Origin: a virus
Lineage: Duplodnaviria > Heunggongvirae > Uroviricota > Caudoviricetes
Length of the DNA stretch: 8,019 nucleotides
Direction: 5' to 3' (one strand)
IMG/VR virus record: IMGVR_UViG_2541047932_000023
This document shows, piece after piece, positions 1 to 3,000 of the stretch (its first letter is position 1; the number at the start of each line of letters is the position of its first letter). Made by a program: the position numbers.

Positions 1-3000
1 ATGGCGAGAAAAACACACCCATTAACCACAGTGCAGATCAAAGCAGCCAGACCAGCGCAAAAGGAGTACACCCTGCAGGACGGCGGAGGGCTTTTTCTCC
101 TGGTCAAACCGTCTGGATCAAAACTCTGGAGATTTTCCTACTACCGACCATCGGACAAAAAAAGAATATTGCTGAGTTTTGGATCGCTTGAAGATGTTTC
201 CCTGGCTGATGCCAGAAAACGCCGTAGCGAGTACAGGACGTTAATCAGTGCCGGAACTGACCCGCAGGACCACGAGAGGCAAAAAAGAGAGACAGAGGCC
301 CGAAGACAAGGGAACACGTTCGAAAATGTGGCGGCGGCATGGTACCAGGTGAAAATCAGCCAGAATCTGGCCCCCAACACGATTAAAGACATCTGGCGTT
401 CGCTGGATAAATATGTATTCCCGTTCATCGGCAACACGCCAATAGATACCCTCACCGCCCGAAGGTTCGTTGAAGTGCTTACCCCCATCAAGGAGCGCGG
501 CAACCTGGAAACACTCAAGCGGGTTTTACAGCGCGTTAATGAGGTAATGGATTACGCCGCCAACAGTGGGCTGATTGATGCCAATCCGGCTATGAATGTG
601 CGTAAGGCGTTTCCCTCACCTGTAAAAAAACATATGCCAACAATCCGCCCCGAACAGCTGCCCGAGCTTATGCAGGCTTTATCAGTATCGGCAACAGAAC
701 GGCAGACCAGATTACTGATTGAATGGCAGTTACTGACCGTAACCCGTCCCGCCGAAGCGTCATCAACGCGGTGGGATGAAATCAACCTGGACGCGAAGCA
801 ATGGACGATACCTGCCGGACGCATGAAGATGCGCAGGGATCACGTTATCCCGCTTTCCGGTCAGGCTATGGCGGTGCTGGAGGCCATGAAACCAATCAGC
901 CACCACCGCAATTACGTTTTCCCAAGTCTGAAAGACCCACAGCAGCCGATGAACAGCCAGACAGCTAACGCAGCATTGCGGCGTATGGGATTCGCTGGCG
1001 TGCTGGTGTCTCATGGATTACGCGCCATATTCAGCACAGCAGCGAACGAGGAAGGATTCGAGCCGGACGTAATAGAGGCGGCACTTGCCCACGTCGACAC
1101 CAACGAAGTTAGACGGGCATACAACCGGAGCAACTACATAGAAAAACGCATCGTGCTGATGCGCTGGTGGGGCGAATTTGTCGAGGCTGCGGCGACGGGC
1201 GTAACCCTCGCCAGTGGTAAAAGGGGTATCCGAGCCGTGTAGCTGTACAGAAAACCAGTAAAAACTACGAAAACCATGTAAAACCGTCGTATAATTGCAT
1301 CAAATTTAACGACAAGGCCGTGAAACATGAAACCGTTAAGATGCAAAAAAATATCAGATGCAATTGCGACGGGCTGCAACTGGCCCTGATGGTTCAGCAT
1401 GAATTTTGGTCAACCTACGATCCGGAGGACAGAACGACGGCCCCATCAAAAAAACAGGTAGTAGATTTTCTGGTATCCCGTGGCGCTTCCAGAAATCTGG
1501 CGGTAAGTATTGATAAGGTCGTACGTCCGGCATCTATGAAGATCGGAGGCAGGCCCAAAAAATGGCGGTAACAATCCTGGAAGCGGCAGAAATGCCGCTT
1601 TTTTTATAATTCCATTTCAAATCATCAATATAAAAAACGGTGTATACCGTTTAAAAACGGTGGGAACTGTTTTTACCCATATCCGATGATTTACCGTATT
1701 TGTCACCGGAATACACCGGATTCACAAGGTAAATCACGATGGAAGCAATCAGAAAAATTATCTTTCGCCAGGAAGTAAAAAAAATTATCCACATCAAGGC
1801 AGACAGCACGCTGCAAAGCATGATCAACGCCGGAGAATTTCCGCAGGGTTTTCGCGTTGGTTTACGCCGTCGCGGATGGTATGAGGATGATGTGTTGTCC
1901 TGGCAGAAAGAACGCGAAGAGGAAGCACGCGGAACGGCTGCTTAACGGGTATCACAGATATGACAAACACGAAAAAAGCGGCCCCGATATGGAGCCGCCT
2001 TTCTGAACAATTAACCCGCTGCGCCTTATGTGTATGTGATCCCAAACATAAGCACGGGGATGATAGCCGCTATCAGGCTGGTGGGCAATGCAATCAGTCT
2101 GGTTCAGTTCGTTGCCATACCTGCAATGAGCGCTTTTCCCTGTACTCTTTAAGGAATTGCTCAAGGGCAAAAGCACATGGCGCGAATCTTTCTGATTCAT
2201 GCTCTATCTTTCTGCGCCGTCTTTTCCGTGCCGGTGATAATGTTTTGGTCAATTCTTTATCGGTCATTGTGTTGTCCTGCATAGCAATGCGCCGTAATAC
2301 CTCACACCACGGCGCTGATAGTTTTTATCCTTTGGGTTCTATGCCGCGTTGCTGTAATTCTTTGCGGAGAACGCGTTTAATCCAAGTGGCTAAAGATGTG
2401 TCGCCATCGGCCTTAGCTGCTTCTTCTAGCTGCGCTCTGAAGTCTTCCGGTAATCGCATTTGGTATGGAGGCGAACGTTTTTCTAATGGTGTTGACATGG
2501 TAATTACCCTTCATTACTATACCCACATGGTAATTACCATTGTACTTGCCATTACACAAAAATCAACGCCCCGCAGTGCTGGGAACACATACGGGGCGTC
2601 TAACCAACAACGTAAACTAGGAGCCGTTATGGTTGCTGTAAATCATATACCACACCTTGTACACACACAAACGGCCTTTGTGTGGCGTTTTCTGGCCCTG
2701 AGTGCCGGAGAATCTCAAATCATCCACGTAACCGCCTGGACGGAACGCGAAGCGCGTAGCCGTTGCCCGTCCGGTTGTGTTGCTGTATTCGCCGCCCGTA
2801 TTCGTCAGGAGGTGTGCCATGTGCAATAAAACCACACCGGACGCAGCAGCCGCCGCGCTCACTACGCTGATGCACGCGCTTATCGATATTGAATGCACTG
2901 CAGAGCTTGCGCAGGGAGAAGAACAGAAAGACCGGACACAGTTCGTCCTGGAATGTATCCGATACACCACCACGCGGTCGCTGAATGACGCTAAAAATAT

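Follow-up and report, generated by a model that had tools for sequence, protein, structure and literature searches.

What keeps a Gram-negative phage satellite silent in its host? The founding paper on phage-inducible chromosomal islands (PICIs) of Gram-negative bacteria described them as transcribed unidirectionally and left a global repressor unclear (PMC6092414). The preprint on capsid-forming PICIs never uses the word "repressor", and the one kind of immunity named in a 2023 survey is RNA-based, of the C4/isrK type (PMC10111431). We analysed one stretch of DNA of 8,019 nucleotides (IMG/VR record IMGVR_UViG_2541047932_000023), the whole of which we call the window. It is a PICI-type phage satellite of E. 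coli, and it carries twin palindromes between a leftward gene for a small ribbon-helix-helix (RHH) protein and a rightward replication operon headed by an icd-like gene. We found that, by sequence comparison, the palindromes are most likely two operators of an RHH repressor that silences the replication operon. We reach this reading because the architecture is conserved in about 60 loci, because operator and protein co-vary, because regulator and sites are swapped as a cassette, and because a literature check is consistent with it. Taken together with a second layer, in which an antisense RNA is predicted to act on the icd-like gene, we give it a probability of about 0.74.

Results

Two palindromes nested in a pair of facing promoters

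The window contains exactly two copies of the 10-bp palindrome GGTAATTACC, one at 2499-2508 and the other at 2529-2538. This pair was found just as a sequence-only reading of the DNA had described it, two identical perfect palindromes 30 bp apart. However, the repeat is longer than first reported. The sites form a 17-nt direct repeat, ACATGGTAATTACC[C/A]TT, with 30 bp from start to start, and at site 2 the perfect palindrome extends to 14 bp (ATGGTAATTACCAT, 2527-2540). Lone 10-bp palindromes are frequent when the whole window is shuffled with its dinucleotides preserved (mean of 8.5 per shuffle), but twin identical perfect ones no more than 60 bp apart arose in only 2 of 3,000 such shuffles. 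The view that the twin is very unlikely by chance therefore holds.

We refer to the extended sites as predicted operators O1 (2497-2510; ATGGTAATTACCCT, core GGTAATTACC at 2499-2508) and O2 (2527-2540; ATGGTAATTACCAT, core at 2529-2538). O1 adjoins the start codon of the RHH gene. That codon had been placed inside the first palindrome, but CAT at 2496-2498 borders on the 10-bp core, and its overlap is with the extended 14-bp palindrome alone.

A promoter scan bore out the near-consensus rightward promoter with one palindrome in its spacer. This promoter, P-right (plus strand, 2492-2520), consists of TTGACA (2492-2497) and TACTAT (2515-2520) separated by 17 nt, matches the consensus at 10 of 12 positions and is assigned to the icd-like/replication operon; O1 fills its spacer. 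P-left (minus strand, 2539-2566), assigned to the RHH gene, is weak, with TTGATT (2566-2561) and TACAAT (2544-2539) separated by 16 nt and 9 of 12 consensus positions matched. Its -35 is at the same time the T-tract of the terminator of the predicted antisense RNA described below. The two promoters do overlap, as had been proposed, but they are arranged face-to-face rather than divergently. If transcription begins ~7 nt downstream of each -10, the predicted start sites fall at ~2527 for P-right and ~2532 for P-left, both within O2.

Across loci, the spacing between O1 and O2 varies from 27 to 35 bp. This range rules out helical phasing as the cause of the 30-bp spacing, and the suggestion that the sites lie three helical turns apart on the same DNA face is withdrawn. 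From the sequence comparisons, spacing appears better explained by promoter geometry than by helical phase. The O2 consensus for the window's class of loci is ACATGGTAAnnACCAT, in which the arms ATGGT/ACCAT are invariant and the centre positions vary. Such a pattern suggests that two dimers would bind per site.

A small, probably Arc-like protein

The RHH gene (minus strand, 2325-2498) encodes a predicted repressor of 57 residues. The protein matches the PHROG 228 family "Arc-like repressor" (E = 1.5e-6, residues 6-55). An AlphaFold2 (AF2) model of the monomer (pLDDT 77.8) has an extended N-terminus followed by helices at 18-31 and 36-50, a modelled arrangement that corresponds to the beta-alpha-alpha fold of the RHH (Arc/MetJ) superfamily. 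Among the Foldseek matches listed, most were RHH proteins (AmrZ, Arc, NikR, CopG and N-domains of antitoxins), and the best-fitting ones superposed with a root-mean-square deviation of ~0.9-1.4 Å over 36-38 residues. A sequence-profile search of the PDB returned mainly designed helical-repeat proteins and weak unrelated matches, which we took to be spurious.

Homologues fall into 93 clusters at 61-98% identity, nearly all of 55-58 residues, from Enterobacterales, Pasteurellaceae, Aeromonas, Oceanimonas and Gilliamella. R21, W39 and a C-terminal tail, RGIEPKG, are conserved, with R51, G52 and P55 invariant within the tail. The tail (residues 50-57, window 2325-2350) lies beyond helix 2 and is nearly invariant in a set of loci whose retrieval was biased toward this motif. 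It could form contacts between dimers or a docking site for an inducer.

RefSeq almost always misses the RHH gene in E. coli. PGAP instead places a plus-strand "Icd-like" pseudogene antisense to it (L002, 2871-3386; L088, 12793-13386), and the annotation miss touches most of the 349 genomes that carry the cassette described below. The gene is real despite its missing annotation. The family is also nearly absent from 50,697 phage records, among which a protein search gave one close match. This lone homologue (H66) is in "Pasteurella phage Pmp8" (OR544139.1, 5007-5180), a record of 15.3 kb, and its size suggests a satellite that was deposited as a phage. A nucleotide search of phage genomes with positions 2540-2700 gave no match.

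Sites and regulator are conserved and change together

Is this architecture peculiar to one island? A locus scan with one genome per species returned 79 loci. The layout of the window is kept in 74 of them (~60 unique), although many loci are related and the counts overstate the number of independent events. These loci come from many gammaproteobacterial genera, among them Xenorhabdus, Photorhabdus, Yersinia, Pectobacterium, Pantoea, Gilliamella and Oceanimonas, and also from Pasteurellaceae. Conservation of the architecture is thereby supported in some 60 distinct loci.

The promoter is as well kept as the sites within it. Of 59 unique upstream regions, 53 have a perfect TTGACA that begins 4 nt ahead of the RHH start codon, P-right scores at least 10/12 in 52 of the 59, and the nesting of -35, O1, -10 and O2, including the position of O1, is kept in 53 of 59 unique loci. 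The codon for Ser2 of the RHH protein is TCA in 51 of 52 cases, and it is because Ser2 is written in this way that the TTGACA hexamer stays intact. The Photorhabdus promoter has moved with respect to the start codon, but its spacer still encloses a palindrome.

The operator arms change with the N-terminal strand of the RHH protein, class by class. The recognition strand SP[QP][YF]QMRL goes with the operator TGGTAAnnACCA, TDQYQ[IL]RL with TTGTAATTACAA, NPPFQFRL with GTGTAATKACAC and SPQFPMRL with GGTATATACC. When the O1 of one class was matched against the O2 zone of every class, the diagonal dominated, with own-class values of 9.5, 10.1 and 8.8 for the well-defined classes and cross-class values mostly of ~6.2-8.6. 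The related classes B and E, which have TGTAATTAC in common, scored 8.9-9.7 against each other.

Some loci of the window's class (L003, L015 and L020) have a third palindrome, TTGTAATTACA, beside O2, at a distance of ~44-46 nt from where the RHH gene starts. In sequence it belongs to the type of the other class.

The regulator and its predicted sites are exchanged as a cassette

The closest E. coli island, that of strain CD45, shares 93.7% identity with the window through position 2317 and 97.2% from 2557 onward. Between these boundaries it carries a 299-bp replacement (L001, 11321-11619) that holds a gene for a 59-residue YlcI/YnfO protein and three GTGCGATKCAC repeats. Positions 2318-2556 of the window thus mark an exchangeable cassette of immunity type, which takes in the RHH gene, both operators and P-left. 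The two islands encode Int and AlpA proteins that are 100% identical. With both proteins unchanged and the repeats different, it is the small regulator that the repeats follow, rather than AlpA or Int.

A third cassette occupies this position in the prototype island EcCICFT073, with a different YlcI/YnfO gene (L090, 8474-8852). Its promoter reads TTGACG-[GTGGGCCACACC]-TATAGT-[GTGGGCCACACC], the same promoter and twin-repeat geometry. The CD45 and EcCICFT073 cassettes both retain the same hairpin and icd-like gene. The window's own cassette is present in 349 of 5,426 complete E. coli genomes, and the island that carries it in O157:H7 has a different integrase.

A predicted antisense RNA over the icd-like ribosome site

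To the right of the palindromes, a hairpin, ACGCCCCG..CGGGGCGT (2566-2599), is followed on the minus strand by UGAUUUUUGU, and together they form a predicted intrinsic terminator (minus strand, 2555-2599). The hairpin has a covariation score of 0.249 against 0.074 in shuffles, and none of 500 shuffles reached 0.249. Among its non-Watson-Crick cells, 36 read as A·C on the plus strand and hence as G·U on the minus, against 4 that read as G·U on the plus strand. Because the wobbles fit the minus strand and the T-tract lies 3' of the hairpin there, the terminator runs leftward. The same observations rule out a plus-strand leader hairpin or attenuator at 2566-2599.

A candidate promoter for this terminator, P-as (minus strand, 2642-2670), lies within codons 5-14 of the icd-like gene, with a -10 of TATGAT (reverse complement of 2642-2647) and a weak -35 of TTGTGT (reverse complement of 2665-2670). 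Of 63 unique loci, 52 have a minus-strand TAnnnT at this fixed offset (54 if ±1 base is allowed), compared with a mean of 1.9 at other offsets. The hexamer lies 43-44 nt to the right of the terminator hairpin, in codons 5-7 of the icd-like gene, and it is kept even though the encoded residues differ (NHI, KFT, QHN, QST, KCT or NYT). A separate terminator-like hairpin on the plus strand (2664-2684; CACACAAA..TTTGTGTG, then GCGTTTTCTG) lies inside the icd-like open reading frame (ORF) and overlaps the P-as -35; it could be an attenuator.

The conserved terminator and the conserved -10 together predict an antisense RNA over the icd-like ribosome site. It would be ~80 nt long (minus strand, 2556-2635, with ends that we infer at ~2635 and ~2556) and complementary to the icd-like leader, including the Shine-Dalgarno (SD) sequence at 2619-2623 and the ATG at 2629. 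The predicted RNA folds at -33.6 kcal/mol with a z-score of -4.2. RNAalifold, run on 41 sequences, gave a 5' stem-loop with the anti-SD sequence CUCCU in its loop, followed by the terminator, and compensatory changes occur in 13 of 21 pairs. A search of Rfam at E ≤ 1 on both strands, C4 and isrK included, gave no match, on which ground we rejected an RNA of the C4/CI/isrK type.

Gene content of the island

Pfam and NCBIfam searches give the window the gene order int, alpA, leftward RHH, rightward icd-like, DUF4222, RepA helicase, SSB, TerS and capsid. The integrase occupies 1-1242 and an AlpA-like protein, with a weak Pfam match, 1739-1945. The icd-like gene (plus strand, 2629-2829; NF033153, E = 6e-18) is the first of the rightward operon, and its stop (2829) overlaps the next start codon at 2819. 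It is followed by DUF4222 (3272-3571), a RepA-type helicase (RepA/AAA_25, 3568-4977), SSB (5426-5836), TerS (6445-6933) and a capsid protein from 7096, within whose gene the window ends. This content is what makes the window a PICI-type satellite. We considered a capsid-forming PICI and rejected it in favour of a classical PICI, since the matching CD45 island, which lies beside tRNA-Pro and yejM and spans ~8.8 kb, ends directly after the capsid gene. EcCICFT073 is organised like the window island, and loci in Pasteurella and Xenorhabdus also have a satellite-like neighbourhood (int, alpA and primase).

A basic 62-residue ORF downstream of the RHH gene (orf62; minus strand, 2094-2282), which contains RKRRRRK and matches PHROG 21027 (function unknown, E = 1.6e-15), is probably co-transcribed with it and ended by a terminator at 2004-1972. 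The swapped cassette does not include it, and only in E. coli and Shigella is it found together with the RHH gene. On the plus strand, a stop-free frame of 289 codons (1960-2829) runs antisense through orf62 and the RHH gene, crosses the control region and joins the icd-like gene without a change of frame. Similar upstream extensions, stop-free for at least 300 nt, occur in 23 of 68 unique loci.

Discussion

How would such a control region work? We propose that the RHH protein binds both 14-bp operators, probably as a dimer of dimers at each site, and reads the ATGGT/ACCAT arms. When an island enters a cell that lacks the protein, P-right would fire and the island would replicate. RHH protein, expressed from P-left and by read-through of the antisense terminator, would then build up until, on O1 and O2, it excluded RNA polymerase from the replication operon and limited its own synthesis. 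The ~80-nt leftward RNA, made from the promoter inside the icd-like gene, would pair with the icd-like ribosome site and block translation of any leaked transcript. Through translational coupling at the stop/start overlap (2819-2829), expression of the downstream genes might also be lowered. Moreover, an EcCICFT073 ORF3 reporter was low without AlpA and needed AlpA, a result that fits the repressor model (PMC6092414). The sequence-only reading had proposed an autoregulated repressor that also shuts off the replication operon. Conservation, co-variation and the cassette swap support that proposal, while DNA binding and repression are what we infer from them; the term "lysogeny-type switch" that came with it is useful as an analogy only.

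Several observations weigh against this model. The protein scores below threshold against both Pfam Arc (PF03869; 14.3 bits, cut-off 20.4) and NCBIfam YlcI/YnfO (NF041551; 18.7 bits, cut-off 30), and the E-values of the listed Foldseek matches exceed 1, as is expected for so small a domain. P-left keeps its geometry across loci and scores weakly, typically at 7-8/12. The -35 of P-as is likewise weak, and a TGn extension is present in 19 of 54 loci. The relatedness of many loci, noted above, also tempers the counts, and some loci (L053, L058 and L080) have no recognisable sites. A copy in Erwinia lies among toxin-antitoxin genes without satellite genes. Finally, over-expression of AlpA alone induces EcCICFT073 replication (PMC6092414), and because it suffices, the repressor is not the sole gate and can be bypassed.

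The Erwinia copy deserves a closer description. At L086 and L087 (7594-8171), the RHH gene and a divergent gene for a 63-residue protein lie amid ParE/RelB and HipBA genes, and neither integrase nor replication genes were found at these two loci. The locus may be the remnant of an island.

Could the RHH protein have a smaller role than that of a repressor? It might be a transient modulator, similar to Cro or Arc, that is made mainly after induction or entry and only trims P-right, with the absence of AlpA, the antisense RNA or both accounting for quiescence. AlpA is necessary for EcCICFT073 induction and its over-expression is sufficient (PMC6092414), as this idea would have it. The weakness of P-left is also in its favour, and the antisense RNA offers an alternative route to silencing. 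We nevertheless consider it unlikely. P-right is near consensus and strongly conserved and would fire constitutively unless repressed, the RHH gene diverges from the operon opposite, as mnt does in P22 and arc does not, and the cassette swaps as an immunity-like unit. A narrower role still would be for the palindromes only to autoregulate a stand-alone or antitoxin-like RHH gene, with the overlap of P-right incidental. RHH antitoxins commonly autoregulate through palindromes, many of the fold matches are antitoxin RHH domains, and the Erwinia homologue has just the neighbours one would expect. Yet there is no conserved partner: orf62 is limited to E. coli and Shigella, and the RHH gene stands alone in Pasteurella and Xenorhabdus. 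We rejected a type II toxin-antitoxin system because no toxin gene is conserved next to it. Incidental overlap also sits poorly with a -35/O1/-10/O2 nesting that 53 of 59 loci share and that survives the promoter shift in Photorhabdus, and we regard autoregulation alone as improbable.

It is also conceivable that the palindromes are bound by some other factor, such as AlpA, the integrase or a host protein, and that the RHH protein has its targets elsewhere. AlpA is after all the DNA-binding activator of such islands, and its sites are unmapped. However, the Int and AlpA of CD45 are 100% identical to those of the window, and yet the repeats differ completely along with the regulator; the operator arms, moreover, co-vary with the RHH N-terminal strand across classes. 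An outside binder is thus very improbable. That the twin is a functionless chance repeat is hardly credible. Lone palindromes of 10 bp are common (~8 per shuffled window), but the twin is not (2 of 3,000), and the conservation of the sites across genera effectively refutes chance.

Repression by the RHH protein at O1 and O2 may be one instance of something broader. In a tentative extension, which we think rather less likely than not to hold as a whole, cassettes with small regulators (RHH, YlcI/YnfO and others) and an antisense RNA would be the long-sought immunity module of Gram-negative PICIs. They would silence the islands and set exchangeable immunity groups, and AlpA would induce not by activating P-right but by driving transcription from upstream across the cassette, perhaps through antitermination. 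The stop-free plus-strand frame antisense to the RHH gene might then shield this read-through transcript from Rho.

What does this offer to the study of phage satellites? It provides a concrete candidate repressor with predicted operators, and the prototype EcCICFT073 carries a different form of the cassette. It makes the quiescence of islands and the override by AlpA testable, along with the idea that cassette types set immunity or incompatibility between co-resident satellites. It also predicts a new family of structured antisense RNAs. The sequence-only reading had suggested that this layer of control might be undescribed in enterobacterial PICIs, and we found no published description of it. 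We found no publication that links PICIs or phage satellites with RHH, Arc, CopG or MetJ, none that links AlpA and PICIs with antitermination, and none that assigns a function to YlcI/YnfO, whose sole mention in a satellite context is as a gene label without function.

How does the system compare with others? The regulators of EcCICFT073 and CD45, annotated as YlcI/YnfO (NF041551), share its position and orientation, are close to it in size (59 residues) and have its twin-repeat promoter geometry, its hairpin and the icd-like gene alongside. They differ in their recognition strand and operators, and the window protein reaches only 18.7 of the 30 bits required for their family. The Stl and Rpr repressors of Staphylococcus aureus pathogenicity islands (SaPIs) and other Gram-positive PICIs are larger, are not known to have an RHH fold and are lifted by helper-phage antirepressor proteins. 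As in the window, the gene for Stl/Rpr is on the int side, with a divergent control region between it and the replication operon that it faces, whereas the documented trigger in Gram-negative islands is AlpA (PMC6092414).

Control by RNA of an operon headed by an icd-type gene also has precedents. In immI of P1 (C4 RNA, icd and ant) and in P4 with its CI RNA, an RNA blocks an operon headed by such a gene and translational coupling carries the effect downstream. C4 and CI RNAs are processed from the same strand as their target, whereas the window RNA is predicted from the opposite strand and has no C4 or isrK match in Rfam at E ≤ 1. Matches to C4/isrK have been reported in some Gram-negative PICIs (PMC10111431).

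Parallels in logic also lie outside the satellites. Copy control of plasmid pMV158 combines the RHH repressor CopG with the antisense RNAII. There too, replication genes are under an RHH repressor that acts at a promoter palindrome and under a short antisense RNA that blocks translation. However, copG is co-transcribed with repB, whereas the window regulator is divergent; the operator sequence and the type of element differ as well, and CopG appears only among the non-significant fold matches of the window protein. The immI region of phage P22 has two RHH repressors of Pant, Mnt and Arc, plus the sar antisense RNA. It shares with the window a small divergent RHH repressor, an operator that overlaps the repressed promoter, autoregulation and a short cis-antisense RNA that covers a ribosome site in the repressed operon. 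Unlike P22 immI, the window system has one regulator with two separate operators ~30 bp apart, and what it would control is a replication operon whose first gene is icd-like and not an antirepressor. Its protein is sub-threshold to Arc and occurs in satellites, with near absence from the 50,697 phage records. Altogether, the kind of system is familiar from P22 immI and from CopG/RNAII of pMV158, and its occurrence in Gram-negative PICIs appears to be new.

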